From IMG/VR virus record IMGVR_UViG_3300000439_000004, positions 98,181 to 162,180 of that record: a DNA stretch of 64,000 nucleotides, one strand, 5' to 3'. The position numbers and the translations under genes were made by a program. This document shows positions 2,475-64,000 of this stretch, piece by piece. Below the pieces are notes generated by a model that was not told the origin of the DNA, ran no database searches, and saw nothing but the letters and a program-made list of their open reading frames with translations. This DNA is from a virus (taxonomy: Duplodnaviria; Caudoviricetes). Within the stretch, counting starts at the first letter, position 1. Every line of letters starts with the position of its first letter.

Positions 2475-4838
2475 TTATTGGGTGATAGTTTTAAAAAACT
2501 CCACTCTATCTTTACATACATTCCTCAATGCAAATTTATCTTTAACAGTTTCATAAAGACGATTACCAAGATCTTCAATCATATTGGGATTATCCACTAA
2601 ACGTTTCATATGTTTACCCCAATCTTTATGGTTTCTATTAGGGTCTACTAATAGAGCATTACCTTTATCATTAAATTTACCACTATCTACCGCAGATATT
2701 AAATCCAAATTATATGGTTTAACATTACTAGCAATTAACGCCTTTTTATGGAAACCTGCTTCAATAACCTTTAATTGTGATTTATTTGCATTAAAATGAG
2801 ACTCTGCTAATGGTGCTAAAGAAATATCAAAATAGTTATAATTTATGGCATATTTTGCAACATCCAATGTCCATCTTCTTCTATATGTTTCATTATCATC
2901 TTTATATTCAGGGGATGGTGTAAATGATTTAAGATAAGTTTCGTATGTAGGATTAGTTACTCGATAATTATCGGTAAATATTTGTTCATACTTATACCAA
3001 ACTGTTTCTTCTGGTTTTATTGGTCTTTGTGTTACTTGTTTTGTGTCTGGATTAAATTCACTAACAGTACCTCTAGTATCAAATCCACATAGTACAAATT
3101 GAGTATTTTCAGGTTTTTCATGTTGGATACTTGAAATACCATTTCTAAGTAATTCTAGGTCATGTAAGTGACTATTACCTATCCAAAATGGTTTACCATT
3201 TCTTCTAACATAAATAATGTGATTAGTAACCTCAACACAATAAACAAATCCATTGTAGTATCTTTGATATTGTTCATTACTTTTTACTAATGGTGTTGAT
3301 TTATTATGTTTACTAATATTTGGATTTTTTGAAAAATTAATTTGATAACTATCAAATTGATTTATAATTTGTCTACCTTTAATATATGATGTTCTTTTAC
3401 CTCTATTTTTAATCGTACTTGGTAAACCAATTTTTAATGATATTTCTTGTAAATCGTCAATTAATGATTTAGAACTACTCCACGCTCTTTTTCTTTTATA
3501 AATATTATTTTCAATATTACCATCACCATTTATAAACCATTCTAAAAATATATTTAATTGTCTACTAGATAATTCTTTTAAATCTTTTGGAATAAATTTA
3601 TCATTTGCATAACCAAATTGTGAAAGATAATACCATAATTGTTTATCAAATATACGAATTTGTTTTTTATCTTTACTATATATTGGTTTAAATCCCATTT
3701 TTTCCAATAAATTAAACATCGTTTCAAGATAATTATTATCTTTAATTTGTGCAATACCAACCTGGTGTAAACCTTTAGTTTTACTTGTCCAACCTTCTGC
3801 CATCCAAAAACCAAAAAATTTTAACCAATCATCCATTTCAAATTCTTTTTCATTTCCATATTTATTAAATAAACGTGTTGTTTTAATAAATTTTTTAGAT
3901 ATGATATTATCTATTTCAGATGTTTCCAATTCTAATTCTTCATAAAATTCAATGCTAGGTAATGTAAAAAATTCTTTTTCAATACCATTCCATATAGCAT
4001 CTCTTTTAACGTGGAAATTTTTTCCATGTATTTTTTCCGATTGTACTAACCCCAAATTTAATTTTTTATGACCCAAATGTTTTATTTCAGACGCATACAT
4101 ATTATGATTTGGTGTTACTTCGTACTCAATTAATTTATTTTTACCACAATTTAAATTACCTTTAAATGGTTCACAAATATATCCAGATGGTTTATGATAT
4201 TCAATTTCATTTGTATTTGGATTTAATGTTGCAACTTTTTCAGTTTTATCTAATTGATCAAATCTTATCCAACCATTATCTGTTAATATTTCTGTATCAG
4301 GTGTCATACAACTTCCCCCTAACCATCCGAATCTAATTTTATCAGATTTAAATGGTTTTGGTTGGAATTGTGGTTCTTCATCATTAACCGCATTTGGAAA
4401 TATTGTTGTATTTTTTAACCCTAATTTTTCTTTAATTGTATTTGCAAATATAGTTGTTGTTGTGGTAATATGGTCAACCAATCTTAACATCTCAATTTTT
4501 TTCTCACCAATTTTATGTTCTTTAACTTGGTGGTACATTGGGTGTCTCATATCAACAAACCAAAGGTCATCAATATCCATTACTGTTTTAATTCCCTTTT
4601 CTTTTAACCATTTAATACGAGCAATATTTGCTTCATGGGTTGTAGGTACAACAAAACTATGGAAAACAACTACATTATAATCTTTGAAGAAATCATCATT
4701 ATCTTCAGGATTAAAAGAAATATCTACATGTATTTCATCTGAGTAGTTATCACCAATATATCTAAATGGATCTAAAATTCTAAATTTACCTACACCGAAT
4801 TTATCTGATGGGATTGCTAATATCTTTATTTTTGACAT
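2475..4838 (-). CDS. GT-B (GT4-like) glycosyltransferase containing a LAGLIDADG intein
   Basis: DIDDLW, FPNAV, GWLGGS|..|SHLHDL, DISLAPL..FNANKSQLKVIEAG..IASNVKPY. Confidence 0.85.
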   Translation of the reverse strand: MSKIKILAIPSDKFGVGKFRILDPFRYIGDNYSDEIHVDISFNPEDNDDFFKDYNVVVFHSFVVPTTHEANIARIKWLKEKGIKTVMDIDDLWFVDMRHPMYHQVKEHKIGEKKIEMLRLVDHITTTTTIFANTIKEKLGLKNTTIFPNAVNDEEPQFQPKPFKSDKIRFGWLGGSCMTPDTEILTDNGWIRFDQLDKTEKVATLNPNTNEIEYHKPSGYICEPFKGNLNCGKNKLIEYEVTPNHNMYASEIKHLGHKKLNLGLVQSEKIHGKNFHVKRDAIWNGIEKEFFTLPSIEFYEELELETSEIDNIISKKFIKTTRLFNKYGNEKEFEMDDWLKFFGFWMAEGWTSKTKGLHQVGIAQIKDNNYLETMFNLLEKMGFKPIYSKDKKQIRIFDKQLWYYLSQFGYANDKFIPKDLKELSSRQLNIFLEWFINGDGNIENNIYKRKRAWSSSKSLIDDLQEISLKIGLPSTIKNRGKRTSYIKGRQIINQFDSYQINFSKNPNISKHNKSTPLVKSNEQYQRYYNGFVYCVEVTNHIIYVRRNGKPFWIGNSHLHDLELLRNGISSIQHEKPENTQFVLCGFDTRGTVSEFNPDTKQVTQRPIKPEETVWYKYEQIFTDNYRVTNPTYETYLKSFTPSPEYKDDNETYRRRWTLDVAKYAINYNYFDISLAPLAESHFNANKSQLKVIEAGFHKKALIASNVKPYNLDLISAVDSGKFNDKGNALLVDPNRNHKDWGKHMKRLVDNPNMIEDLGNRLYETVKDKFALRNVCKDRVEFFKTITQ
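3174..4310 (-). mobile_element. Cis-intein (379 aa) with LAGLIDADG endonuclease
   Basis: CMTPDTEILT..VTPNH..FGFWMAEGW..FINGDG..VYCVEV..WIGN|S. Confidence 0.92.
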
Positions 4839-15045: not shown

Positions 15046-16020
15046 ATGACATTTAATGATTTCAAAACATTTTTTTCAAGTAACCTAAAATGGGTATATA
15101 GAGATAAATGTGATGCTGTTCTTAAAAGACAATACACTAAAATTGGTAAATATCGTTTTTGTGATAAAAATCAAAAATATGGTATCCTTGATAATGATGG
15201 TAGATGGGGGTTTGAAAATACCATAAATACTAATTCAAGATGTGCATTAGAATTATATAATATTTATCTTGAGTTTGGTAATGAAAAATTAGATTTTTTT
15301 GATAATACAGAATATTCAATTAATAAATTATGGAATTTTATTGAAGAAAACTTTGAATTATTGTTAACTTATAATATTGAAACAAAATACTATCATAGGT
15401 TTAGACTTATTTGTAATCTTTCTTGGTCAAGAGGTCAAATAACATCGGTTTTATTTTACCTAACTCATAAAAATATATTTCCTGACACTATTAAAACGAC
15501 TATTGAATTAGAAAGAGGTTTGTTTTTAGATTTAAAAGGAATTGATGGATTGTTAACACAAAAAGATGGGACTGATATAACGTTACAAATAAAAAGTGGA
15601 TCTTTTGAAAAGAAGAAACGATTTTATATAATTAATGGTGCTCAAAATGATTTTAATAGTCCCACTAATTATTATTGTTATATTAATATCGGTGAAAATA
15701 ATAACCAAATTATTGTTTTTGAAAATAAAAAAGAAAACATAATGTCAAATGGTAGTCAATGTATAATTGATGAAGAATTTGTAAAATATATAGATATGGA
15801 AAATAAAGAAAATATATCACAAAAATTAATGGAAATATTATTGTTTTGTTCAAAAAATAAATTTGTTTTTGAATTAAAAAATAATGAAGATGAAAATGGA
15901 TTTAAAATTGATACTGAACCTGAAAAAGTGGTAACAATTTCAATTAAAGATTTTGAAGATAAAGATTTATATGATTTATTGGAAGAGAACTTTAACTTAT
16001 TAAAGAATCTCCCCCAATAA
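15046..16020 (+). CDS. Hypothetical protein, possible PD-(D/E)xK nuclease fold
   Basis: DLKGIDGLL..TLQIKS. Confidence 0.45.
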   Translation: MTFNDFKTFFSSNLKWVYRDKCDAVLKRQYTKIGKYRFCDKNQKYGILDNDGRWGFENTINTNSRCALELYNIYLEFGNEKLDFFDNTEYSINKLWNFIEENFELLLTYNIETKYYHRFRLICNLSWSRGQITSVLFYLTHKNIFPDTIKTTIELERGLFLDLKGIDGLLTQKDGTDITLQIKSGSFEKKKRFYIINGAQNDFNSPTNYYCYINIGENNNQIIVFENKKENIMSNGSQCIIDEEFVKYIDMENKENISQKLMEILLFCSKNKFVFELKNNEDENGFKIDTEPEKVVTISIKDFEDKDLYDLLEENFNLLKNLPQ

Positions 16021-18846
16021 TTCTTTCGTAAAGGATTCTGAATATTCCCCGTCACCCATTACCTGATCTATAATGTTTTTCTTTTTATTCAACATATTAT
16101 AGATTATTCTTTCTATTGTATTATCAAATATTGGGTAATAAACCATGACACCCTTTTTTTGACCATATCTGTATGCCCTATCTTCTGCTTGTGAATGTAA
16201 TGCCGGTACAAATGCCAAGTCATTCATAATTACAACTTCCGCTGCAGTTAAAGTAATGCCAACACCACCAGCAACAATGTTAGAAATGAATATTTTTATT
16301 TTATCTTCATTTTGAAATTTATCAACACTTTCCTGTCTTTTTTCTTTTGACATTCTACCATCTAATATTACTGAATTTTTCTTGTATTTTTCATGTAACA
16401 TATCCAATGTCATTGTGAAATTAGTAAATACAATAACCTTTTTATCTTGTTCTAATGCTTTATCAATTAATTCACAAGTATAGTCTATTTTTTCAAATGA
16501 TATTACTTGTCTAATTTTCATTAAACGATTGATTGTAACGGTAATATTTTCATTATCCTTCTTTTCGTTAGAAATCCTCATGAAATCTTCCAACTCTTCT
16601 TCATAATAGGTACTTTTTAACTCCAAAAAAACTGGTGATATAAACTTCTCTGGCAAATCTAATATATCCGTCTTCATTCGTCTTAAAACAAGGTTTTTTG
16701 TACGTTCTCTTAGTTCATCTAAGTGACTAGCACCACTAGTATTCCATATTTTTTTACCATTTACAGTAAATTGAAATCCTTTACAATATCTTTTAACATA
16801 ACTTTGCCAATTAAGAGTTAAAGGTGATTCAACAATGTTCAAAAGATTAAAATAATTTATAGGTCTTGATGTCATGGGTGTACCAGTTAATAACCAAACT
16901 TTAGGTATTTTAGATAAAATATCATTTAATAGTTTAGTTCTATTTGCTGTGGTGTTTGAAATCATATGTGCTTCATCCACGATGGCTAAATCAAATTTTT
17001 CATTTTCTATTAAATTTAATTCAGGGTTTTCGTTACCTATTGCATGATAGTTTTTTATAATATCATAATTGATAATATAAAACTTAAATGTAGACCCCCA
17101 TTTTTTACCTTCGACAATTAAAACACGTTCATCTGAATAGTTTTTAATTTCTCTTAACCAGTTAATCTTTAATGATGCTGGACAAATAATTAATATTTTT
17201 TTTGCACCACTTTCTAATGATGCAATGGCAGCTGAGGTTGTATTATGTGTAACAATAGCATGTTCAGCAACATATAATTTATCAGGTGAATCAACTGAAA
17301 TACATGTGCATTCACTTTCACCATATTTTTCAATATTGGTAATATATCTACCCGTTGGATATTTTTTAGGTTCATTATATAATTCTAATTTTCGTTTTAA
17401 ACGAAATGGGTTCATACCTGGTGGTAATTTTATATTTAATCTATATGATATTTTACATTCAACTCTAACCCCGTTTTTTTTGTAAAAACTTCTTCTTGAC
17501 CTTTTTCTACATATACCACCTAAAGTATGTACAATTTCAGCAAGATCGTCACATAATTTTTCAGATACGGTTGAATATTCAGTTCCATTAAAATTACCAT
17601 TTTTTGATTTCATACAATGTCCATCAGTATCCATTAAACCTTGTAAAATAGATAAACGATTTTCAATTGATGAATATTTGTATATATCAGGTATAAATTT
17701 ATTATGTGATCGAGTATGTTCCAAATGTAGATCAAATAATGAATTTCCAACATTTATATAACCATTTCTTTTGTTATCTTGTGGTTTATTTTCTTTTAAT
17801 CCAAATAAACTAAATAAAGAATCATAATCATCTTTATGAACAGAAAATTTTATGTTTTTATTTTTAAATGACCCGTCACCCAATCCAAGTCCTAACAAAT
17901 AAGGATCAATCGGTAAAATATTTTTATTATCAAATTCTATTGGTTTAACAATTGGTATTTGCCACTTATTATTTCCATTGGGGGATTTATAATATGTTTC
18001 AATTTTGTAATCTCTATCTTCATTATAACCACTACCTTTTATTAAAATTTTCCCACCTTCAAACATTTGTTTAGTTGATAATACTAAAGATTTTTTTAAT
18101 CTATCATTTTTTCTATTTTTACCATAATTTGGAGATGAAACTGACCATAAATGTTCATCCCCACTTAAAATTGTATATCCATCATTAAAAGTTATTTTAT
18201 ACGTTTCTTTTTTACCTTGAGGAAATACACCAATTACATTACACGGTTTACCATTTGAACCGATTACCTTATCACCAATAACAATTTCACCCATTTTTTT
18301 CACACCTAACTCATTGTAAATCAATGTGTTATTGTCTAAAAATTTCCCTAAACCCATATCATCCGCTAATATGAATTTATCATTTGCCAATAATTTTTCA
18401 ATTGCAATTTTTTGATGATCCATTGGTGGTCTGGTACTATAAGGACTATAATCAATAACTCTATTTAACTTTTTTTCAGGTTGAACAATTGCCGCCTTTG
18501 GTAACCAAAATGCATGATTAACTTCGTGATCAAGATATTTTCCCCATATATGGTAAGCCTTATCGCTTTCACATAATAATTTTTCACACCAAATATGTTC
18601 CAATTTATCTAATAATAGACGTTCATCCATTATTTTTTCAGCGAAAGAATCAACTATTTTAATATGTTTTTTTGCTACTTTTGGTTCAACGTTATGGTAG
18701 TTTAATACATAATCTGATTGTGGGCGTGTCAATTTAAAGTTCTTAACAGACGTGAACTTGTTCTTCAATTCTAATAGATGGTTATTTGCACCACTATATT
18801 CTAATAATATTTCTCTAGCCCTGATTTCAGGAATTTTATTATTCAT
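16000..18846 (-). CDS. SNF2/SMARCAL1-like helicase with an intein in Walker A
   Basis: DDMGLGK|T, CPASL, DEAH, LTGTP, QAEDRAYRYGQ. Confidence 0.92.
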   Translation of the reverse strand: MNNKIPEIRAREILLEYSGANNHLLELKNKFTSVKNFKLTRPQSDYVLNYHNVEPKVAKKHIKIVDSFAEKIMDERLLLDKLEHIWCEKLLCESDKAYHIWGKYLDHEVNHAFWLPKAAIVQPEKKLNRVIDYSPYSTRPPMDHQKIAIEKLLANDKFILADDMGLGKFLDNNTLIYNELGVKKMGEIVIGDKVIGSNGKPCNVIGVFPQGKKETYKITFNDGYTILSGDEHLWSVSSPNYGKNRKNDRLKKSLVLSTKQMFEGGKILIKGSGYNEDRDYKIETYYKSPNGNNKWQIPIVKPIEFDNKNILPIDPYLLGLGLGDGSFKNKNIKFSVHKDDYDSLFSLFGLKENKPQDNKRNGYINVGNSLFDLHLEHTRSHNKFIPDIYKYSSIENRLSILQGLMDTDGHCMKSKNGNFNGTEYSTVSEKLCDDLAEIVHTLGGICRKRSRRSFYKKNGVRVECKISYRLNIKLPPGMNPFRLKRKLELYNEPKKYPTGRYITNIEKYGESECTCISVDSPDKLYVAEHAIVTHNTTSAAIASLESGAKKILIICPASLKINWLREIKNYSDERVLIVEGKKWGSTFKFYIINYDIIKNYHAIGNENPELNLIENEKFDLAIVDEAHMISNTTANRTKLLNDILSKIPKVWLLTGTPMTSRPINYFNLLNIVESPLTLNWQSYVKRYCKGFQFTVNGKKIWNTSGASHLDELRERTKNLVLRRMKTDILDLPEKFISPVFLELKSTYYEEELEDFMRISNEKKDNENITVTINRLMKIRQVISFEKIDYTCELIDKALEQDKKVIVFTNFTMTLDMLHEKYKKNSVILDGRMSKEKRQESVDKFQNEDKIKIFISNIVAGGVGITLTAAEVVIMNDLAFVPALHSQAEDRAYRYGQKKGVMVYYPIFDNTIERIIYNMLNKKKNIIDQVMGDGEYSESFTKELLGEIL
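17242..18342 (-). mobile_element. Cis-intein (367 aa), class 3 signature, Phe at position 1
   Basis: GK|FLDNNT..DEHLW..LGLGLGDG..GLMDTDG..CTCISV..VTHN|T. Confidence 0.9.
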
Positions 18847-18894: not shown

Positions 18895-18948
18895 ATGGAT
18901 AATAAATTACCTATCACGCGTCTTTCTAAATTAAAAATCTATTTATAA
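18895..18948 (+). pseudogene. Truncated relic 5' end of the head-completion gene at 19708
   Basis: MDNKLPITRLSKLKIYL* versus MSDSRIPITRLSKFISE. Confidence 0.8.
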
Positions 18949-18950
18949 TT

Positions 18951-19715
18951 ATGATAATTTATAAAACAACAAATATAATAAACAATAAAATTTATATCGG
19001 TCAAGATAAAAATAATAATCCTAATTACATTGGTTCTGGTAATCTAATAAAATATGCAATAAAGAAATATGGAAAAGAAAATTTTATTAAAGAAATTTTA
19101 TACTATTGTTTAACGATAAATGAGTTAAATGAAAAAGAACGTTTTTATATAAAACAATATAATTCTACCGATAAAAATATTGGTTATAATATTTCTGTTG
19201 GTGGAACGAATGGCGTGATGTTGTTTAGAAAACATACAAAAGAAACAATTGAAAAAATGAAAAATTCATCAATAGGTAAAAAAAAGTCAGAATCTCATTG
19301 TAAAAACATTGGATTATCTAAAAAAGGTAGAATAGTATCCGATGAAGAAAAAAGAAAAAGAAGTGAGAATAGTCCATTAAAGGGAATTAAAAAATTACCA
19401 ATGAGTGATGAAATTAAAAAAAAGATTAGTGAAACGAAAAAGGGTACTAAACATCGTAAAGAAACTATACTAAAATTAAGGGAATTAAATATTGGATCAA
19501 AAAATTATTTTTATGGTAAAAAACATTCAGAAGAATTTTTAAAATCTAAAAGGAAAAAAATAATACAAATTAGTTTAAATGATGAATTTATCAAAGAGTG
19601 GGAAAGTTTAAGTGAAGCAAGTAAAAACTTGAATATTTATGTAAGTAATATCTGTAATGTCTTAAAAGGAAGATATAAGACTACAGGTGGTTTTAAATTT
19701 ACATATTATGAGTGA
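18951..19715 (+). CDS. GIY-YIG homing endonuclease (Seg-like) with NUMOD3/NUMOD1 domains
   Basis: IIYKTTN..KIYIGQ..YIGSG; KHTKETIEKM repeats; C-terminal FIKEWESLSEASK..GGFKF. Confidence 0.9.
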   Translation: MIIYKTTNIINNKIYIGQDKNNNPNYIGSGNLIKYAIKKYGKENFIKEILYYCLTINELNEKERFYIKQYNSTDKNIGYNISVGGTNGVMLFRKHTKETIEKMKNSSIGKKKSESHCKNIGLSKKGRIVSDEEKRKRSENSPLKGIKKLPMSDEIKKKISETKKGTKHRKETILKLRELNIGSKNYFYGKKHSEEFLKSKRKKIIQISLNDEFIKEWESLSEASKNLNIYVSNICNVLKGRYKTTGGFKFTYYE

Positions 19716-20223
19716 TTCAAGAATTCCTATTACGAGACTTTCTAAATTTATTTCTGAAGATGATTTTCAACTCAATATTTCAATGGGGGAAGAATACCTT
19801 CATGGTGATTTAAATATGAAACTTGTATTATATAGGGTTGATAGACAAAAAACAGATATTGACAATGTATATGGTGAAGTTGGGATGGATGAAATTAAAT
19901 ATCAACCACCTGTTGAATTTAATGCTTTGGTTAAAATTATTGAACCAAAAAATAGTTCATATAAGGATGGTTTGGTAAGATATAATGAACCCGGAAATAT
20001 GACTGTATCAGTTTATATCAAACATTTAAATGATATGAAAATTGATATTAAATATGGTGATTATATAGGTTATCCTGAATCTGAAACAAAAACAAGATAT
20101 TATAGTGTTGTGGACGATGGAAAAGTAACTTCAGACAATAAACATACGATGTTCGGTTATAAACCTTTTTACAGGACTATAACTTGTTCACCTGTACAAG
20201 ACGGAGAATTTAGAGGAGTTTAA
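19708..20223 (+). CDS. Head completion/neck protein (gp14-like)
   Basis: Position before the terminator and sheath genes; VYGE motif; start overlaps the endonuclease stop (ATGAGTGA). Confidence 0.6.
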   Translation: MSDSRIPITRLSKFISEDDFQLNISMGEEYLHGDLNMKLVLYRVDRQKTDIDNVYGEVGMDEIKYQPPVEFNALVKIIEPKNSSYKDGLVRYNEPGNMTVSVYIKHLNDMKIDIKYGDYIGYPESETKTRYYSVVDDGKVTSDNKHTMFGYKPFYRTITCSPVQDGEFRGV

Positions 20224-54459: not shown

Positions 54460-55944
54460 ATGAATATGTTATTTTTCAACAATACCAAAATTAAAACTAA
54501 AAACAGTATTATTTTTTTTATGTTAAATTTAGATGAAAACGTTATAAAAATTAATGGAGATGAAAGTTTTTTATTTAAAATATTAGAAATTAGCGATGAA
54601 AAAATTAAACCATTTGAAATAATTGATATTTTTATTAAAAACAAAAAACAAATTAGAAGTGTTATAAAATACATTGAAAATAATAAAACAAATATCGATA
54701 TTGATAGAATGGTTAAATTTTTAAATTATAAAATGATGAATTTAAATGATTCTAACAGTAAAACATTTTTATGTTTAATGTATGGAGATGAAATTGGCAA
54801 TGAAAAATTTAAAAATAATCAAAAACAATTTTCAAAATACTATGATAAAAATTATTATATTAATCTAGGATTTACTGAAGAAGAAGCTTTGGAAAAAATA
54901 TTTTCTTATAAAACTAAAAAATCAACTACTAAAATTAATTTTATAAAAAAATACGGCGAAAAAGAAGGTATTCAGAAATATGACGATTATGTTAATAAAA
55001 GTAAAAACACTATAGAAAATTTTAAAATAAGATATGGAAGTGAATGGTTAGAAAAATGGGAAAATTACATTAAAAAAGATTCATCATCCCTTTCTTGGGC
55101 GTTGAAAAAATCAAATGGAGATGTTGAAAAATCAAAACAAATATTTGATGAAAAAAATAAAAAAACAACAATTAATTTAAATTTTTTCAAAAAAAAATAT
55201 GGTGACAATATATACATTGAAAAATATATCGAAAATAATCTTAAAAAAGACAATTCAAGTTTAAATTATTTTTTAAAAAAATATGACGATTTAGAAAAAA
55301 GTTTAAAAGAGTATAAAATTAAAAATCAAAAAAAAGATTCTAATAGTTTGGATTTTTTTAAAAAAAAGTATGACGAAAATGGTGAATTATTGTATAAAGA
55401 AAAATGTAAATTATCGGATAATAAATCTTTAGGTTATTTTATTAAAAAAGAAAACGATTACGAAAAAGGTTTTAAAAAATATCAAGAGACTAAAGAAAAA
55501 TTATTTGTTAAAATCTTAAAGGCAAGTAAAAGTAGTTTAAGACATTTTAAACCATTATATGATTTTTTAATTGAAAATAATTATGACGATGTTTATTTAG
55601 GTGTGGAAAATAATAAAGAATATTTTATTAAAGATAAAAAAAACATTTATTTCTATGATTTTACCTTAAAAAACAAAAAAATAATTATAGAATATAATGG
55701 TAGTTATTGGCATCCTAATTGGGAGAAACATGAGATTAACGAATCAATAAAAAAATTCAAAAATAAAATTGTTGACCCAATTAAAGTAATAAATAAAGAT
55801 AAAGAAAAAATTAATATTGCAATAAATAATGGTTTTGAAGTTTTAATATTATGGGAAGAAGATGGGTTTTATTTTAATGAAGAAAAATTAAAAAATTTTT
55901 TAAATAAAAAAGGTATAAATTATGAAAATAAAAAAAATTACTAA
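54460..55944 (+). CDS. Vsr/PD-(D/E)xK-like endonuclease with helical KKYG repeats, in nrdA break 2
   Basis: FYDF..IIIEYNGSYWH..GFEVLILWE. Confidence 0.8.
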   Translation: MNMLFFNNTKIKTKNSIIFFMLNLDENVIKINGDESFLFKILEISDEKIKPFEIIDIFIKNKKQIRSVIKYIENNKTNIDIDRMVKFLNYKMMNLNDSNSKTFLCLMYGDEIGNEKFKNNQKQFSKYYDKNYYINLGFTEEEALEKIFSYKTKKSTTKINFIKKYGEKEGIQKYDDYVNKSKNTIENFKIRYGSEWLEKWENYIKKDSSSLSWALKKSNGDVEKSKQIFDEKNKKTTINLNFFKKKYGDNIYIEKYIENNLKKDNSSLNYFLKKYDDLEKSLKEYKIKNQKKDSNSLDFFKKKYDENGELLYKEKCKLSDNKSLGYFIKKENDYEKGFKKYQETKEKLFVKILKASKSSLRHFKPLYDFLIENNYDDVYLGVENNKEYFIKDKKNIYFYDFTLKNKKIIIEYNGSYWHPNWEKHEINESIKKFKNKIVDPIKVINKDKEKINIAINNGFEVLILWEEDGFYFNEEKLKNFLNKKGINYENKKNY

Positions 55945-56629
55945 ATCAATTCTAAAAGAACCCGTATGGGATATTGAAGTTGAAAATGATCACCATTACA
56001 TAACTGAAAATGGTTGTGTTAGTCACAATAGTTCTGCTAAAATCACAGGTTCATTTGAGATGACAGAACCTGCACACTCTGCATTATTTAACAGAAGAGT
56101 AGTTGGTGGTGAGATATTGATTGTTAACAAATATTTGATTAATGATTTTGAAAAACTTGGTATTTGGTCTGAAGAATTAAAGAATGAGATTATTATGAAT
56201 GATGGTTCTATTCAAAATATTAATTTTAATAATTATTTGGATAAAGAAGAAAAGAATTATACTAAAAAAATTCAAAGAATTGAACATTTGATTTTAAAAT
56301 ATAAAACAATTTGGGAAATTTCACAGAAAGAATTGATTAATATGTCAGCAGATAGAGGACCATTTATTGATCAGTCTCAGTCAATGAACATATATATGTC
56401 AAACCCAACATTATCAAAAATTTCATCTTCACATTTTTATTCATGGGAGAGGGGTCTTAAAACATTATGTTATTATGTTAGAACAAAGGCGATATCAACG
56501 GGAGCAAAACACTTGGCGTTAGATACAACAAAAATTCAACAAACTAAGACCGATAAACCTAAAGTAGATTATGTTGAAACAACTAAACCAACAGATTCTA
56601 TATTTGAATGTGTAGGTTGTAGTTCATAA
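55922..56629 (+). CDS. nrdA: Split intein 2 C-half (55922-56029) + NrdA fragment 3
   Basis: VWDIEV..VSHN|SSAKITG..IDQSQSMN..GLKTLCYYVR..ECVGCSS. Confidence 0.93.
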   Translation: MKIKKITKSILKEPVWDIEVENDHHYITENGCVSHNSSAKITGSFEMTEPAHSALFNRRVVGGEILIVNKYLINDFEKLGIWSEELKNEIIMNDGSIQNINFNNYLDKEEKNYTKKIQRIEHLILKYKTIWEISQKELINMSADRGPFIDQSQSMNIYMSNPTLSKISSSHFYSWERGLKTLCYYVRTKAISTGAKHLALDTTKIQQTKTDKPKVDYVETTKPTDSIFECVGCSS

Positions 56630-56767: not shown

Positions 56768-58012
56768 ATGAAAACATACTCAATTAGATTATTTCCAACT
56801 CAAGAACAAATATTACAACTTAACCAGTTGTCGAATATTAGAATGGATGTATGGAATACTCTTATTGATATTCAACAAAAATATTACGAAATAAATAAAA
56901 AAATATATTCAAAATTCGAATTAATTAATCTTCTTCCAAAATTAAAAAATGTAACAAAACCAGAATGGAAATTACTTAACGCAAAGGCAATACAAACAAT
57001 TGCAACCGAAGTCTCCCAATCATATCAATCATTCTTTACCCTAATTAAAAAAGATAATACAGCAAAACCGCCTAAACAAAAAGAATTAGGAAGATATCAT
57101 ACCTTAGTTTTTAACCAATCAGGTTGGGTATTTAAAGATAATAAAATACAAATAAATAAAATATTATTTAACTATAAATCTAACCTAACTAATGTATCAG
57201 AATTAAATATTAAACAAATTTGTGTTAAATTTAATAATAATAATAATAAATGGTTATGTGATATTGTGATTAACGACACAATATCATATAATGATAATGT
57301 TATAATTAATACTAAGGTATTGGCGTTTGATTTGGGATTAAAAAATTTAGGAACTGGTGTGGATAATAAAGGTAATGTATTTATCTTAAAGAATAAAGCT
57401 AAAAAGATTAATCAGTATTTTGGTAAACAAATTAATGAAATTAAATCTAAATTAAGTAAAAAAGAAAAAGGAAGTAAAAATTACAATAAACTAAATAAGG
57501 TTAAGAAAAAATTATATTCTAAAAAAAATACTCAAATAAAAGAAACTCTACATATTCAGAGTAAACAATTAGTGAATATGAACTACAAAACAATTGTAGT
57601 AGGTGAATTAACAATTAAATCTTTAATGTCAATAGAAGGTATTAATAAGAATAAAAAAAGTATTAGAAAATCATTTAATGAATCTAATATTAATATGTTC
57701 TTAGAATTTCTTAAATATAAATTACAAAATAAACAATGTGATTTAATTAAGATAAATGAAAGAAATACAACACAACTTAATTCTTTAACAGGAAAAATAT
57801 TTAAGAATAAGGTAGAATTAAAAGATAGAATTGTTAAATTAAGTGATAAAGTCGAAATAGATAGAGATTTAAATTCGGCTATTAATATTTTGAAAAGATA
57901 TTATGACAATCACCTTGCTTCTATGACAGAGCCATTAGATTATACTAATGTAATTATGAACTTTAATGTTTGTAATAACCATTCCTCAATTGGTAATTTT
58001 ATTGTTTTTTAG
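56768..58012 (+). mobile_element. tnpB: Solo IS200/IS605-family TnpB RNA-guided nuclease
   Basis: YSIRLFPTQEQ; RuvC residues AFDLG, VGEL, DRDLNSAINI; no tnpA adjacent. Confidence 0.88.
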
Positions 58013-58065
58013 ACAATGATAGGATGTCATTTATTACCATTTTGATATTTACTATATTTATGAAT

Positions 58066-58518
58066 ATGGCAGTAACATATGGTGTAGATTTTCCATTTAG
58101 AGATAGTTTTAAAGGACATTTTGTACAAATGACAGAAAGTCCTGAAAGAGAAGTTCGTGCTGATTTAATTCATTTAATATTAACAAGAAAAGGTAGTAGA
58201 TATTATTTACCCGATTTTGGTACTAGATTATATGAATTTATATTTGAACCAAATGACCAAACTACTTGGGATTTAATTGAAACAGAAATTAGGGAAGCGG
58301 TAAAAAATTATATCCCAAATTTAGATATTAATTCAATAACAGTAACATCTGCAGAAGATGATCCAAATAATCAAGTAACATCAAATATACTTGAAGATGA
58401 AAGATTATTTAGAGTATCAGATGCGTCCACAGAACCATATACCGCAGTAGTAAAAATAGATTATACTGTAAATAATGGAGCATTTTCATCTTCCGATTTT
58501 ATAATTATCAATATATAA
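58066..58518 (+). CDS. Baseplate wedge protein (gp25-like)
   Basis: LTRKGSRYYLPDFGTRLYEFIFEP. Confidence 0.88.
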   Translation: MAVTYGVDFPFRDSFKGHFVQMTESPEREVRADLIHLILTRKGSRYYLPDFGTRLYEFIFEPNDQTTWDLIETEIREAVKNYIPNLDINSITVTSAEDDPNNQVTSNILEDERLFRVSDASTEPYTAVVKIDYTVNNGAFSSSDFIIINI

Positions 58519-58521
58519 ACC

Positions 58522-60354
58522 ATGAGTAAAAAAATATCATACGCAGTTCGTGATTTTGCGGGATTAAGACAAGAATTAGTTAACTTAACAACAGATTATT
58601 ACCCAAATTTAGTGGGTAATACTAATGATGCTTCAATATATTCAGTATTATTGGATTTAAATGCCGCAGTTGCGGATAATTTACATTTTCATATTGATAG
58701 GGTTTGGCAAGAAACAATGTTGGATTTTGCACAACAAACACAATCATTATTTCACATTGCAAAAACATATGGAATAAGAATACCAGGTTTAAGACCTTCA
58801 GTTGCCTTATGTGATTTTTCAATTAATGTTCCTGTTAGAGGAGATAAAGAAGACGGTAGATATTTGGGTGTATTAAAAACAGGTGCACAAGTTTCTGGTG
58901 GTGGACAAATATTCGAAACAATTAATGATATTGATTTTTCAAATCCATTTAATGATAGGGGTGAATCAAATCGTTTAAAGATACCAAATTTTGATAACAA
59001 TAATAAATTAATATCATATACTATTACTAAAAGAGAACCGGTTGTTAATGGTATTACAAAAATTTATAGAAGAGTAATTACAAATTTAGATCAAAAACCA
59101 TTTTTAAAACTATATTTACCTGAACAAAATGTATTAGGTGTTACTTCTGTTATACATAAGGAAGGTACATCATTTAATGCTGACCCAACATCATCAGAAT
59201 TTTATTCTTCACAAAACAAATGGTATGAAGTTAAGACAATGATACAAGATAAAGTATTTGTACCTGATCCAACATCTGCATCAGATACACAAAATTTTAA
59301 ATCTGGTGTTTATTTACCTGTTACAAATAAATTTGTTACAGAATATACCCCACAGGGTTATTTTTCTTTAACATTTGGTTCTGGTTCTGTTGACCCATTA
59401 TCTAATTTAGATGATTATATGACAGGAAATATGAGAGTTTCCTTGGGTTCATATCTTAATAATTTATCATTAGGTGCAACACCAAAAGTAGGAACGACAT
59501 TATTTGTTCAATATAGAATTGGTGGTGGTAAAGATTCTAATTTAGGTGTTAATGTTATAACTAGTGTGGACGATATTGACTTTGCGGTACAAGGACCAAA
59601 TTCAAGTGTTAATGATCAAGTCACACAATCATTAAATGTAACAAATGTAACACCAGCAGTAGGGGGTGCTGACCAACCAACAGTTGAAGAAATGAGAAAT
59701 ATGGTTGCATATAATTTTGCTGCACAAGACAGGGCAGTAACATTAAATGATTATAAAACACTAATAGAAACAATGCCATCAACATTTGGTGCTCCTGCTA
59801 AGGTAAATGTAATGGAAGTTGATAATAAGATTCAAATTAAATTATTATCATATGATGAATTAGGTAATTTAACTGATGTCGTTTCAAACACATTAAAAAA
59901 TAATATTTTAACATACCTTTCTGAATATAGAATGATAAATGATTATTTGGATATTGTTAGTGGTGAAGTAATTGATTTAGGTTTACAAATTGACTTAATA
60001 ATAGACAAAAACTCAAATCAAACTGATATTGTTAGAACATGTATTAATGATACAATAACTTATTTCGATATTACAAAAAGAAAAATGGGTGACCCATTAT
60101 TTGTTGGTGATTTAATTAGACAATTAGGTAGTGTTAATGGTGTGGTTAATGTGGTTGATGTTAGAGTTTATAATTTAATTGGTGGTAATTATTCTACATC
60201 TCAAGTTGCACAAGATTTTGTTGACTCTATAACAATGGAAATTCAACAACAAGATATGACTATTTTTATGAAGTCAAATCAAATATTTCAAATTAGAATA
60301 CCAAATACCGATATAAAAGTTAGGTTAAAAACTTTAGGAACGACTACATATTGA
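58522..60354 (+). CDS. Baseplate wedge protein (gp6/J-like)
   Basis: RDFAGLRQEL, YRIGGG, GGAD, QDRAVTLNDY. Confidence 0.88.
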   Translation: MSKKISYAVRDFAGLRQELVNLTTDYYPNLVGNTNDASIYSVLLDLNAAVADNLHFHIDRVWQETMLDFAQQTQSLFHIAKTYGIRIPGLRPSVALCDFSINVPVRGDKEDGRYLGVLKTGAQVSGGGQIFETINDIDFSNPFNDRGESNRLKIPNFDNNNKLISYTITKREPVVNGITKIYRRVITNLDQKPFLKLYLPEQNVLGVTSVIHKEGTSFNADPTSSEFYSSQNKWYEVKTMIQDKVFVPDPTSASDTQNFKSGVYLPVTNKFVTEYTPQGYFSLTFGSGSVDPLSNLDDYMTGNMRVSLGSYLNNLSLGATPKVGTTLFVQYRIGGGKDSNLGVNVITSVDDIDFAVQGPNSSVNDQVTQSLNVTNVTPAVGGADQPTVEEMRNMVAYNFAAQDRAVTLNDYKTLIETMPSTFGAPAKVNVMEVDNKIQIKLLSYDELGNLTDVVSNTLKNNILTYLSEYRMINDYLDIVSGEVIDLGLQIDLIIDKNSNQTDIVRTCINDTITYFDITKRKMGDPLFVGDLIRQLGSVNGVVNVVDVRVYNLIGGNYSTSQVAQDFVDSITMEIQQQDMTIFMKSNQIFQIRIPNTDIKVRLKTLGTTTY

Positions 60355-60410
60355 TCTTAAAATTATTTATATTAAAATTAGAAAATTAATTTTTTTCTAT
60401 TTATATAAAT

Positions 60411-60524
60411 ATGGGTATACAAAAACATAGAATTTACACCAATATTGGTGTAGATCAAAATATTACCGTAGAACTAAAACAAAATTTCGACATTCTTGAA
60501 ATTTTAAGTTTAAACAGACATTAG
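60411..60524 (+). pseudogene. Truncated relic 5' end of the gene at 61432
   Basis: MGIQKHRIYTNIGVDQNITVELKQNFDILEILSLNRH* versus MNKYRISTNIGKDQFLTINLENSYDLLEILSLKISQ. Confidence 0.85.
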
Positions 60525-60554
60525 GTTTTTTTGAAATTTTATATATTTATAATT

Positions 60555-61439
60555 ATGGAATATATATTTAAAGAAAGAATTAATGTTATTAGTTATAATT
60601 GTGTTTATATGATAAAAAATATTATAAACAACAAAGTTTATATTGGATCAACTATTAAATTAAAAAAAAGAATAATAGTTCATTTTAATTTATTAAAAAA
60701 TAAAAAACACACTAGCATAAAATTACAAAGATCTTGGAATAAACATGGTGAAGAGTCTTTTAGATTTTATATAATTGAAGAAAATATTGATATTAAATTT
60801 TTAATAGAAAGAGAACAATTTTACATTGATACTTATAATTCTGTAAAAAATGGGTTTAATTTAACACCAAAGGCAGGAACTACATTAGGAAATAAATGGT
60901 CTGAAGAATCAAAATTAACGTATTCTAAAATGAAAAAATCATTAGAGCTGGGTGAACCAGTAGTACAATATGATTTAAATGGAAATAAATTGAATGAATT
61001 TAAAAATATGAAAATTGCTGCACTTACAATAGGTTTAAAAAATTCTTCAAATATAGGTATGGTTTGTAGAAAAGAACGTAAAACTTTTGGTGGGTTTATA
61101 TGGGAATATAAAGATTTAGAAAAACAAAAAAAATATGGGGTTCATGAATTTAATAACAATTTTAAATTAGAATGTCCACATTGTAAAAATATTGATTTAA
61201 ATCGAGCTGGATTTGTTTATTTAAAAAATATAAAAAAACAAAATTATAAATGTAAAAATTGTTTAAAAAGATTTAGTGAGACTACTAATAACGGATTTCC
61301 ACCTAATTCTGACATAGAAAAACACAAACAAATAAGAGAACTAAAAGATAAACTAACTTATAAAGAAATTAGTGAAATTGTAAATTTACATCCAAACTCT
61401 GTATATCGAATAATAAAAAAATATATAATTAATGAATAA
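60555..61439 (+). CDS. GIY-YIG homing endonuclease with NUMOD1, Zn ribbon and HTH
   Basis: CVYMIKN..VYIGST..REQFYID; CPHC..CKNC. Confidence 0.88.
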   Translation: MEYIFKERINVISYNCVYMIKNIINNKVYIGSTIKLKKRIIVHFNLLKNKKHTSIKLQRSWNKHGEESFRFYIIEENIDIKFLIEREQFYIDTYNSVKNGFNLTPKAGTTLGNKWSEESKLTYSKMKKSLELGEPVVQYDLNGNKLNEFKNMKIAALTIGLKNSSNIGMVCRKERKTFGGFIWEYKDLEKQKKYGVHEFNNNFKLECPHCKNIDLNRAGFVYLKNIKKQNYKCKNCLKRFSETTNNGFPPNSDIEKHKQIRELKDKLTYKEISEIVNLHPNSVYRIIKKYIINE

Positions 61440-64000
61440 GTATAGAATATCAACTAATATTGGTAAAGATCAGTTTTTAACTATAAATTTGGAAAATTCT
61501 TATGACTTATTAGAAATACTTTCCCTAAAAATTAGTCAAACAGACGTATATAGATCATTTTGTAGTGATTATGGTGTTGTTGTTGGTAGAGTAACTGCAA
61601 ACAATGGATTTGGTGTACCAAATATAAGAGTTTCAATATTTGTACCATTAGATGATGTGGATGTTAATGATCCCGTAATTTCAGTTTTATACCCTTATAC
61701 CACAGTAGAAGATAAAGACGATAATAATTATCGTTATAATCTATTACCCTCAAGAAAACAACATGGAGGACATGAACCAACAGGAACATTTCCGGATCAA
61801 GAAGATATTTTAACTCGTGAAGAATATTTGGAAGTATTTGAAAAATATTATAAATATACAGTTAAAACAAATGATGCTGGTGATTTTATGATATGGGGAG
61901 TACCATTAGGTCAACAAACAATACATTTTGATGGGGATTTATCTGATATTGGTTGTTTTTCATTAAGACCCGATGATTTCATTAGACAAGGTAAAGGTGT
62001 CGATCAATTCAAAAACACATATCAATTTAAATCATCTGAAGATTTAGATTCACTTCCTCAAATTTTTAAATATAATAAAACAATACAAGTTTCACCATTT
62101 TGGGGAAATCAAGATATATGTCGAATTGGTATAACAAGAACTGATTTTGATTTATCCTCTATTGGTATAAGAATTAAACCGATGGCTTTAATAATTGGGG
62201 GAACATTTACTGATACAGGGAAACATTCAGTAAATAAAAATTGTATGCCCACAAAAGAAATGGGTAGAAAATGTACTTTATCTACAACTAAAGGTAAAAT
62301 TGAAGCAATACGTTTTACAACGGAAAAAGATGAATTAAATAGACCATATTTAGAAGAAGTTATTTTAAATGAAGACATTGGAGATGACGGTGCTTTTGCA
62401 TTTAGTATTGAGATGAATATGGATTATTTATATACGAATGAATTTGGTGAAAATGAATATACCAATGATCCAAATAAAGGTATACCAACCTCATCTTGTT
62501 ATCGTTTTAGGTTCACATTAAAAGATGAAGGATTGGCTAGAGTTAGGGCAAGAGCAAGTTTTTTAGTACCAAATATTAGAGAATTTAATGATGAAAATGG
62601 TATTGATTTAAATTCATATGCATGGACAACAGACTATTCAGGATATCCTTCAAATGGGATTTCTTTAATATTAAATAATTATGAAGGGTTTTATTATCCC
62701 CAAGATTATTTTTATAGATTTACATATAATAAAGTTTATACAGTTTCTTCATTCCACAGTAGATTACCTGGTGATATTACAAATAATAGTAATAAGTATG
62801 TCGGTATAAAAGATATTGTACCATCCGAAGAAAAAGATTGTATAAGTAGTGTTAACACATTACCAACAAATTTTGCAACAAAACATAGTGGATTAAATTT
62901 TAATATTTTAATAGGTACATTAGTTGCATTTATAACATTTGTTTTTGCTGTTATAAAATTAGTTGTTTTTGAATTTGTTGGTACATTTTTATATGATGTC
63001 GGAAAGGGATTATATGGAATATATTTTGGTTGGCCATTTAATTGGAGACCATTTGCCGCAATTGGTGAAAAATTTATAAATGCAGCCTTTAATGTATGTG
63101 TTGCTGGACAAAAAGTTTTACCATTAACAATTTATGATGATTGTGAATTATGTTCAGATGATGATACGTCATATACCACAGGATTTAATACGGGTGTTTA
63201 TGCAAAAATAGGTGAATTAAAATTTGATATTTTACAAACTTGGGTACCTAATACATCTAATTACATTATAGGAAATAGTATTAGTACTTTTAGAAATAAT
63301 GATACTGATTATATGTATTTGTTTTTAAGTACAGGTACGACTAGTTTAAATGAAGATATTAGTGGTAATACTTCCAATATTTTAACTAATACAAACGCAA
63401 GAGATTATTGTGTTTATTCTAGTTACACTGCATCCGGTTGTGTAAATAATGGTTCATATCAAATTTCACAAAGTGGTTACACATATTTAGGAAGTGCTGA
63501 AGAGTTTACCGACCCGGATAATGGTGAAGTTTTCCCAAGATTTTTTATTGATTTAGGTCTTTCTCCATCAGGATCACCAATTAATGAAGTTTCATATTAT
63601 CTTAATAATAAAGGTCCTATAGGTGGTATGGATCCAAATACAAATCAAACAAATCAAATTTATCTTGTTGAACAAAATGGTTACCCAAGTGGTTCAATAT
63701 TTGGTTTTTATAAAGGTAATGTTACTATATTAACTGAAGTTGCCATCAATAATGTCCCTTTAACAACTATTTATCCTGATGGTACACCATATATGATAAT
63801 TAGTAAAAATGATATGTTAAATTTATTTGGTATAACATTTAATGGTGATTCACCTAATAATGGAACAATAATAAGTGGAACAACATATGGTTATATTGAA
63901 GATAGAATGTTTAAAAAAACAAATAAACAATATACAGGTTCTACAATATTGGAAAGTTGTAACATATATAATAGATTATATGATAAATCTATAGCCGATG
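61432..64000 (+). CDS. Large putative structural protein (partial; runs off the window)
   Basis: Hand translation MNKYRISTNIG..GVVVGRVTANNGFGVPN..; follows the baseplate genes; openness to the window end inferred, not checked codon by codon. Confidence 0.7.
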   Translation, partial: MNKYRISTNIGKDQFLTINLENSYDLLEILSLKISQTDVYRSFCSDYGVVVGRVTANNGFGVPNIRVSIFVPLDDVDVNDPVISVLYPYTTVEDKDDNNYRYNLLPSRKQHGGHEPTGTFPDQEDILTREEYLEVFEKYYKYTVKTNDAGDFMIWGVPLGQQTIHFDGDLSDIGCFSLRPDDFIRQGKGVDQFKNTYQFKSSEDLDSLPQIFKYNKTIQVSPFWGNQDICRIGITRTDFDLSSIGIRIKPMALIIGGTFTDTGKHSVNKNCMPTKEMGRKCTLSTTKGKIEAIRFTTEKDELNRPYLEEVILNEDIGDDGAFAFSIEMNMDYLYTNEFGENEYTNDPNKGIPTSSCYRFRFTLKDEGLARVRARASFLVPNIREFNDENGIDLNSYAWTTDYSGYPSNGISLILNNYEGFYYPQDYFYRFTYNKVYTVSSFHSRLPGDITNNSNKYVGIKDIVPSEEKDCISSVNTLPTNFATKHSGLNFNILIGTLVAFITFVFAVIKLVVFEFVGTFLYDVGKGLYGIYFGWPFNWRPFAAIGEKFINAAFNVCVAGQKVLPLTIYDDCELCSDDDTSYTTGFNTGVYAKIGELKFDILQTWVPNTSNYIIGNSISTFRNNDTDYMYLFLSTGTTSLNEDISGNTSNILTNTNARDYCVYSSYTASGCVNNGSYQISQSGYTYLGSAEEFTDPDNGEVFPRFFIDLGLSPSGSPINEVSYYLNNKGPIGGMDPNTNQTNQIYLVEQNGYPSGSIFGFYKGNVTILTEVAINNVPLTTIYPDGTPYMIISKNDMLNLFGITFNGDSPNNGTIISGTTYGYIEDRMFKKTNKQYTGSTILESCNIYNRLYDKSIAD

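Follow-up and report, generated by a model that had tools for sequence, protein, structure and literature searches.

Structure of the locus

The stretch of DNA analysed here, hereafter called the window, is the final 64 kb (64,000 nucleotides, nt) of a viral record of 162 kb with 27.6% G+C (Caudoviricetes; IMG/VR record IMGVR_UViG_3300000439_000004), the completeness of which was estimated at about half. Close to the right-hand end of the window, a free-standing GIY-YIG homing endonuclease gene lies between gene J, which encodes a baseplate wedge subunit, and gene X. A 37-codon open reading frame (ORF) resembling the first codons of X, hereafter the relic, precedes the endonuclease gene, and the intact gene X restarts at the endonuclease stop codon. 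A first-pass annotation made from the sequence alone had described the relic, the GIY-YIG gene and the restarting gene; all of these were found in place, as were the 8-nt stop/start overlap ATGAATAA and the TATTTATA motif belonging to the endonuclease itself (Table 1). The locus very probably represents a mobile homing-endonuclease cassette lodged in the 5' coding end of an essential structural gene.

Table 1. Features of the J-X locus, of the first cassette and of the neighbouring genes (positions in the window)
Feature	Position	Strand	Basis or remarks
J-X native intergenic region	60355..60410	+	Kept in position and sequence 5' of X in all aligned relatives
Promoter-like motif TCTATTTATA	60396-60405	+	In native spacer, ahead of relic; conserved in every relative
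TATTTATA copies	60398-60405 (before relic) and 60544-60551 (before endonuclease)	+	Motif search
Relic of X 5' end, 37-codon ORF	60411-60524	+	Codons 1-34 to 60512, out-of-register tail, TAG 60522-60524
Older relic remnant in endonuclease leader	60513..60538	+	Homologous to X codons ~22-31; K-Q-D-F-D-L-L-E-I decayed to ...F-F-E-I
Endonuclease's own TATTTATA	60544..60551	+	3 nt before ATG 60555
Free-standing GIY-YIG homing endonuclease, 294 amino acids (aa)	60555-61439	+	Pfam PF01541, E 2.9e-13; PHROG 'homing endonuclease', E 3e-25
Stop/start overlap ATGAATAA	61432-61439	+	Endonuclease stop overlaps intact X start codon; read directly
Substitute X 5' end, apparently imported, codons 1-32 through L-S-L	61432..61529	+	81/84 to L015/L016, 49/84 to relic
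K-I-S codons, insertion point	61528..61536	+	Relic ends ...TTA AA, gene continues A ATT AGT
Gene X, putative baseplate/tail-fibre-region protein, 856+ aa	61432..64000, continues past record end	+	Position after W and J
First cassette, same design	18895..19750	+	Relic of 12-13 codons 18895-18948; GIY-YIG gene 18951-19715; gene Y restarts at 19708
TnpB-like protein	56768-58012	+	OrfB_IS605, Cas12f-like TNB and HTH_OrfB domains
W, gp25/W-like baseplate wedge protein	58024-58518	+	Pfam/PHROG matches
J, gp6/J-like wedge subunit, 610 aa	58522-60354	+	Pfam/PHROG matches

Over codons 1-34, 19 of the 34 residues of the relic are identical to those of the intact X start. Alleles were compared over an 84-nt core of the X start (R-I ... 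L-S-L), in which the relic and the intact copy show 58% DNA identity. The relic also matches the N-terminus of X in 40 related contigs (tblastn, E values of 1e-9 to 1e-14). In a genome-wide scan of the kind suggested by the first-pass annotation, in which each gene start was compared with its own upstream 1.8 kb, this pair ranked first with a score of 94 (95th percentile, 40).

Forty-one related IMG/VR contigs encode X, and 40 of them span the J-X junction. In all 40, the order is W, J, a spacer of 60-66 nt and X, with one gene start and no endonuclease. The first-pass annotation had set its proposal against the case in which relatives without the endonuclease also carry both copies of the start; none of the contigs does (0/40). 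Relative to these 40 relatives, the endonuclease unit is an insertion. The junction shows a presence/absence polymorphism, the endonuclease being absent from 40/40 IMG/VR relatives and present in at least seven other lineages. The same structure was found in an independent assembly from an ENA sample (L053), which has the same relic (107/109 identity), a 98%-identical endonuclease and a DNA identity of 98-100% from the relic to about 62100. The cassette is therefore not an assembly artefact.

The PF01541 match of the endonuclease is above the cut-off. In its C-terminal part, HTH_23 scored 24.6 bits, exactly the cut-off, and NUMOD1 scored 20.2 bits, which is under the cut-off of 22.8 bits. A Cys4-like C-x2-C...C-x2-C block is conserved in the alignment of homologues, and the catalytic-type residues Y18, Y29, G31, R39, E87 and N102 are invariant among eight of them. 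The useful homologues came from a large protein collection and one metagenome scan; a search of IMG/VR with the endonuclease protein returned distant relatives in other contexts only. The window's other GIY-YIG protein (gene 18951-19715) shows just 39% identity to it over part of the length. An in-frame TTG lies at 60531, 6 nt past the relic stop and upstream of the ATG. Inspection by eye for a CNNNG-type cleavage motif gave no convincing candidate, and none is claimed.

Occupation of the J-X slot in other lineages

At least seven diverged endonuclease lineages, with identities of 50-61%, were found between J and X (L054, L055/L056, L057/L058/L059, L060, L063, L075 and L076). A 28-codon relic of X is fused in frame to the endonuclease in L055 and L056; in L057, L058 and L059 the relic has 29 codons, and a partial, older one comes after it. 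In both L055 and L057, the in-frame relic supplies the start codon of the endonuclease. The endonuclease and X overlap by 14-17 nt in L054, L055 and L057. The alignments indicate that diverged members of a single endonuclease family have entered this slot on repeated occasions. The recurrence on which the first-pass annotation had laid stress is thus seen at a second site in the window, again in the independent assembly, and at the J-X junction with several diverged lineages of the endonuclease.

The leader of the endonuclease holds a further trace of X. Positions 60513-60538 can be aligned with the leaders of L054, L057, L060, L075 and L076, and a remnant of about 10 codons is found in most of the slot lineages. 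In L057, the remnant retains the reading K-Q-D-F-D-F-F-E-I and agrees with the homologous X position in 22/27 nt, a value reached by 0/2000 shuffles; the L060 remnant reads K-R-D-F-V-F-F-D-I. Since the leader alignment identifies 60513-60538 as an old remnant, the window holds two stacked relics, one of 34 codons and an older one of about 10 codons. The leader core ATATATTTAT is conserved across the endonuclease lineages. A sigma-70-type reading of the leader (TTGAAA ... TATAAT), considered by eye, was rejected with its spacer of only about 11 nt.

The relics end at codon 34 in the window and L053, at codon 28 in L055, at codon 29 in L057 and at about codon 31 in the older remnant, all of which lie inside the conserved block D-L-L-E-I-L-S-L. 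In L063, an internally deleted endonuclease of about 300 nt (2932-3233) is located directly behind the native promoter motif in the J-X slot; about 30 N-terminal residues and the C-terminal helix-turn-helix part are left. It represents a decay stage of the homing cycle.

The mobile segment and the origin of the two gene starts

Congruence between the endonuclease and the intact start across all lineages was uninformative, the relationships being star-like at 50-61% identity; only the backbones of L055 and L057 are close enough. Between these two, DNA identity is 81% in J, 82% in the relic and 80-82% in the X body from the first 100 nt past the core, whereas it is 65% in the endonuclease and 64% in the intact core. 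These segment-wise differences single out the endonuclease together with X codons 1 to about 34 as a unit of separate history and assign the relic to the backbone. The right border of the mobile unit coincides with the point where the relics end. This result supports the earlier proposal that a mobile cassette replaced the 5' end of X and left the old start behind as a relic. Co-conversion of flanking X sequence with the endonuclease is seen in L055/L057 and also in the window, where an L015-type core is followed by K-I-S.

A second gene in the window, Y, carries a cassette of the same design (Table 1), with a score of 45 in the scan of gene starts. The stop of its GIY-YIG gene overlaps the start of Y in ATGAGTGA, and TATTTATAATTATG at 18940 precedes the GIY-YIG gene as it precedes the endonuclease gene at 60555. 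At this site, 73 of 80 relatives have a gap of 43-66 nt and no endonuclease. The relic and the DNA upstream of it match the nearest relatives, the first ~14 codons of intact Y are foreign, and backbone identity resumes directly after them.

All sequences are metagenomic, and the donor and the recipient of the event in the window lie outside the sampled genomes. The alleles of the X start nevertheless carry information on both. The intact core shows 96% DNA identity and 28/28 identical residues to that of the endonuclease-free L015/L016, and the best match of the relic core is L014/L021 with 81%. The similarity specific to L015 drops from 96% in the core to 86% in the next 63 nt and then to 72-77%, with the best breakpoint at 61582 (2*dlogL = 22, twice the log-likelihood difference). 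The codons AAA-ATx-AGT (K-I-S) occur only in the window and in L014/L021, all other alleles having K-F-T. Since the recipient-type K-I-S resumes exactly where the relic ends, the insertion point was placed at ...TTA AA^A ATT AGT... We infer that an L015-type cassette entered a recipient genome whose X start was L014-like. L015 and L016 would then either have lost the cassette or have provided the captured start.

At position 18 of the core, Gln is present in 38/40 endonuclease-free alleles vs 1/8 endonuclease-linked alleles (Fisher's test, 4e-6; p = 0.003 for unique alleles), an association that is confounded by shared ancestry. This is the candidate immunity position.

Alternative explanations

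Several points weigh against the interpretation given above. A long relic is not required for occupation of the slot, as L054, L075 and L063 have an endonuclease with little or no relic. Apart from the relic and the endonuclease, the window follows L015 collinearly, with about 90% identity in W, J and the spacer, and its intact start shows 91-96% identity to that of L015. Taken alone, such an L015-like start would point to a native intact copy and a foreign relic. The K-I-S patch comprises 5 diagnostic bases only. The relics of L055 and L057 have Asn, not Gln, at position 18. Finally, the cleavage site, the immunity and the mode of expression are all inferred from metagenomic sequence.

The first of these points would be accommodated by an ordinary intergenic, free-standing endonuclease whose home, like that of the T4 seg genes, is the space between genes, here J and X, with co-conversion of the flank, the relic being a neutral scar of an imprecise left junction made by microhomology and of no consequence for mobility or expression. 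The endonucleases of L054 and L075 begin a few bases past the J stop, and that of L063 follows the native promoter with no long relic. The left junction of the window has TTAAA(A) in common with the J-stop region of L054-type donors, which may be such a microhomology, and co-conversion of flanking markers is standard in intronless homing (PMC2988022). However, the leaders of L054, L075, L060 and L076 keep the target-like remnant of about 10 codons, which suggests that the ancestral element was already inside X. Three independent long relics and the old one stop within a single 7-codon block, those of L055 and L057 are fused in frame and give the endonuclease its start codon, and the same plan is found at a second gene. 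These facts make a purely intergenic origin unlikely, although it is the strongest competitor of a cassette inside X.

The collinearity with L015 could instead mean that the intact start is native and that the relic came from the donor as a left-hand passenger of the endonuclease; the identity between the relic and L015 is only 59.5%. The pattern in L055 and L057 is the opposite, since there the relic follows the backbone in its identity and the intact core goes with the endonuclease, and in the first cassette, too, it is the relic that matches the nearest relatives and the intact beginning that is foreign. The L015-type core itself has the unusual N-L-E-N of endonuclease-linked starts such as that of L076, which no other endonuclease-free allele has. 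The L015 start consists of native first codons and a cassette-type core, exactly the product expected of a deletion between the relic and the substitute at the shared ATAGAAT. In addition, recipient-type K-I-S comes after the intact core of the window. Because the imported start of the window is of the allele type of the endonuclease-free L015/L016, the native copy cannot be read from the nearest relative alone. A native intact start seems distinctly improbable to us.

A local tandem duplication of the gene start, with the endonuclease landing later between the copies, would account for the two direct copies of about 100 nt that flank the gene. The copies are, however, 58% identical to each other and 96% and 81% identical to the alleles of other genomes, which excludes a recent local duplication; a duplicated start is found in 0/40 endonuclease-free genomes, and the segment discordance between L055 and L057 also speaks against this explanation, to which we assign very little probability. 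That the upstream piece is a real exon or functional fragment of a group I intron, intein or split gene is hardly credible, even though one source labels related endonucleases 'group I intron endonuclease' and the genome is rich in inteins and split genes: the X start covers the same residues as the relic, so that nothing is left to splice in, the endonuclease is a separate ORF, set apart from the relic by stops and a change of frame, and a search of Rfam for intron-like RNA families over 60200-61800 gave no match, only one sub-threshold microRNA match.

Proposed mechanism of gene-start replacement

For the expression of the cassette, the TATTTATA motif is of interest. Within the window it is no more frequent than expected by chance (25 seen vs 28 expected), and simple over-representation was dropped as an argument; its significance lies in position alone. 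Among 87 copies in the genome, 32 are located 0-25 nt 5' of the ATG of an ORF of at least 80 aa, where 1.2 would be expected. On account of this placement, TATTTATA is regarded as a gene-start, promoter-like element. Genome-wide, the motif followed by 3-15 nt and an ATG is found ahead of at least 32 long ORFs. Since this gap leaves no space for a Shine-Dalgarno sequence, the motif points to a phage promoter with very short leaders. Its logic resembles that of the T4 late promoter, although the sequence is different. The native copy of X stays with the relic, and the endonuclease has a separate copy of its own.

In the cassette model, the mobile unit consists of a short leader, the GIY-YIG gene and substitute X codons 1 to about 32-34, and is located at the L-S-L^K codons of X. 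From the sequence, the predicted cut in endonuclease-free X lies within or next to the strongly conserved codons ~22-35; the first-pass annotation had likewise pointed to the EILSL codons. The break would be repaired from a co-infecting genome that carries the endonuclease. The right end would pair in the X body, and the left end, with the recipient's codons 1-34, would be joined 5' of the endonuclease through the donor relic or through microhomology. The recipient's own start would in this way turn into the new relic, and the displaced native start indeed appears to persist behind the native promoter-like motif. The substitute start is probably a cleavage-resistant allele.

Transcription would proceed from the native X promoter, and the relic ORF would be translated first. 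The endonuclease would then be translated by re-initiation 30 nt after the relic ORF, or as an in-frame fusion in the case of L055 and L057, and the translation of X would be coupled to the endonuclease stop. The expression of the cassette is apparently piggy-backed on the native promoter-like motif and start codon.

On a more tentative level, gene-start replacement might be regarded as a third, splicing-free lifestyle of endonucleases in essential coding sequence, a view that we consider, as a whole, less likely than not. It would combine an immune substitute start, a promoter and start codon captured by way of the relic, a translation of X tied to the endonuclease stop, which would make loss of the element costly, a record of successive invasions in the form of stacked relics, a leader remnant serving as left homology arm and/or autorepression operator, and L015/L016 as resistant survivors of deletion.

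Gene X, neighbouring genes and other observations

No match to X was found in Pfam, PHROG or PDB sequences; the one lead, a weak one from the Atlas, points to a carboxypeptidase-regulatory-like domain. Its putative role is read only from its position behind the wedge genes W and J. Within X, a mosaic boundary lies at about 62150-62250: identity to L053 is 99-100% before it and 55-75% after about 62200, and the best-matching relative also switches there in comparisons with L015 and L009. The part of X before about 62200 is probably a conserved one for attachment to the baseplate, and the part after it a variable distal one.

The TnpB-like ORF is preceded by the last ribonucleotide-reductase piece and followed by W; TATTTATA is located 6 nt 5' of its ATG. 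Relatives hold other small genes in this slot, namely an acetyltransferase gene in L057 and an endonuclease-like ORF in L009, and the slot therefore looks like an insertion hot spot. The ORF at 55922-56626 (235 aa) corresponds to the C-terminal barrel part of ribonucleotide reductase, with a short match to an intein-splicing domain ahead of it.

Beside the first cassette, a SNF2-like helicase of 948 aa is encoded on the minus strand (16000-18846). By eye, it contains an apparent intein, a long insert after G-L-G-K that ends ...V-T-H-N before T. In L082, a 618-nt insert with an unrelated ORF (2376-2995) occupies the first-cassette site between the SNF2-like gene and Y, in place of an endonuclease.

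The scan of gene starts also returned pairs that are not relics. The third pair (genome 66436-66582 vs 66601-68196) stems from an ORF of 428 aa (genome 65436-66722; L077 937-2223) whose internal tandem repeat, two copies of a proline/lysine-rich unit of about 40 residues, was read in other frames. The other top matches of a refined scan are paralogous small genes with an MKIIITEEQLK-type start. At least eight genes with such a start (first 10-16 residues) lie outside the window, at genome positions 6132, 7352, 8116, 8628, 10448, 84726, 86366 and 86909. They are a paralogous family with a conserved N-terminal tag.

Relation to known systems

Homing endonucleases are usually said to live in genes only by means of introns, inteins or gene splitting, and otherwise between genes. 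The J-X locus would represent a further phage solution, in which the element cuts in a conserved coding block and carries a replacement for the severed part of the gene. It would explain short 'orphan' ORFs that duplicate the start of a neighbouring gene, which are easily mis-annotated. The endpoints of the relics offer a sequence-only readout of the insertion point and of the likely cut region in an uncultured phage. The locus also shows endonuclease elements driving allele mosaicism at the start of a gene of the baseplate/tail-fibre region. Among the related contigs, this one site is found in several stages of the homing cycle: empty, with an active cassette, with stacked relics, with a decayed enzyme and, possibly, as a resistant allele free of the endonuclease.

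The T4 endonucleases SegF, SegG, SegE and SegB carry out intronless homing with co-conversion; their genes are intergenic, and cleavage occurs hundreds to thousands of bp from the insertion (PMC2988022). The present endonuclease is similarly a free-standing GIY-YIG enzyme encoded beside its presumed target gene, with presence/absence polymorphism, apparent use of a host promoter and overlapping frames that suggest translational coupling; comparable promoter borrowing and overlaps are known for T4 seg and mob genes (PMC2988022). Unlike in the seg systems, the insertion lies within the coding sequence, seemingly at the cut or close to it, and is accompanied by a duplicated, displaced gene start. 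The review of T4 covers intronless homing, embedded promoters and genes-in-pieces, and does not describe duplicated gene ends (PMC2988022).

Genes-in-pieces, namely mobE in Aeh1 nrdA, mobA in T4 gene 60 and a seg gene in gene 43 of phage 25 (PMC2988022), resemble the X locus in that an important phage gene harbours a free-standing endonuclease in its coding region and neither an intron nor an intein is involved. In those cases two polypeptides reassemble, whereas the substitute start restores a complete X and makes the upstream piece redundant. I-TevI represses its own expression through a homing-site-like operator that overlaps its late promoter (PMC2988022). Here, too, a target-like sequence conserved among the lineages lies directly 5' of the promoter-like motif of the endonuclease; it differs in being a decayed copy of the target gene, and an operator role for it is speculation. 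A description of such gene-start replacement in phages was not found in literature searches, nor is the arrangement described in a study of ICP1 phages that deals with nuclease genes at recombination boundaries.

The closest described system is that of the mobile endonuclease ORF (mORF) gene hybrids of fungal mitochondria, in which an endonuclease ORF and a foreign gene end are inserted in atp6 of Allomyces macrogynus and in atp6, atp9, cox2 and nad3 of Glomus (PMC3630166). The displaced native terminus is kept as an unexpressed duplicate and groups with close relatives, the two copies showing 63.5% identity in Glomus atp6 (PMC3630166). The X cassette is alike in that an endonuclease and a foreign gene terminus are inserted in a gene, the native terminus is kept as a duplicate and the copies differ. 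The enzymes of the mORF hybrids are of the GIY-YIG or LAGLIDADG type, and that of the X cassette is of the GIY-YIG type. The mORF hybrids, however, replace the 3' end (core, foreign C-terminus, endonuclease, native C-terminus), often as in-frame fusions, and are found in organelles. In the phage structural gene X, it is the 5' end that is replaced, in the order native start relic, endonuclease, foreign start and gene body. Because the 5' end is replaced, this design must also solve the problem of the promoter and the translation start, apparently by means of the native promoter and the stop/start overlap. The X cassette is a mirror image of the mitochondrial hybrids, which works alike but is not a member of that set, and this mirror relationship suggests a general principle. 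The kind of element, endonuclease-borne replacement of a gene terminus, or intronless homing, is known; the X cassette is new in that it concerns the 5' end, resides in a phage and appears to combine promoter capture with stop/start coupling.

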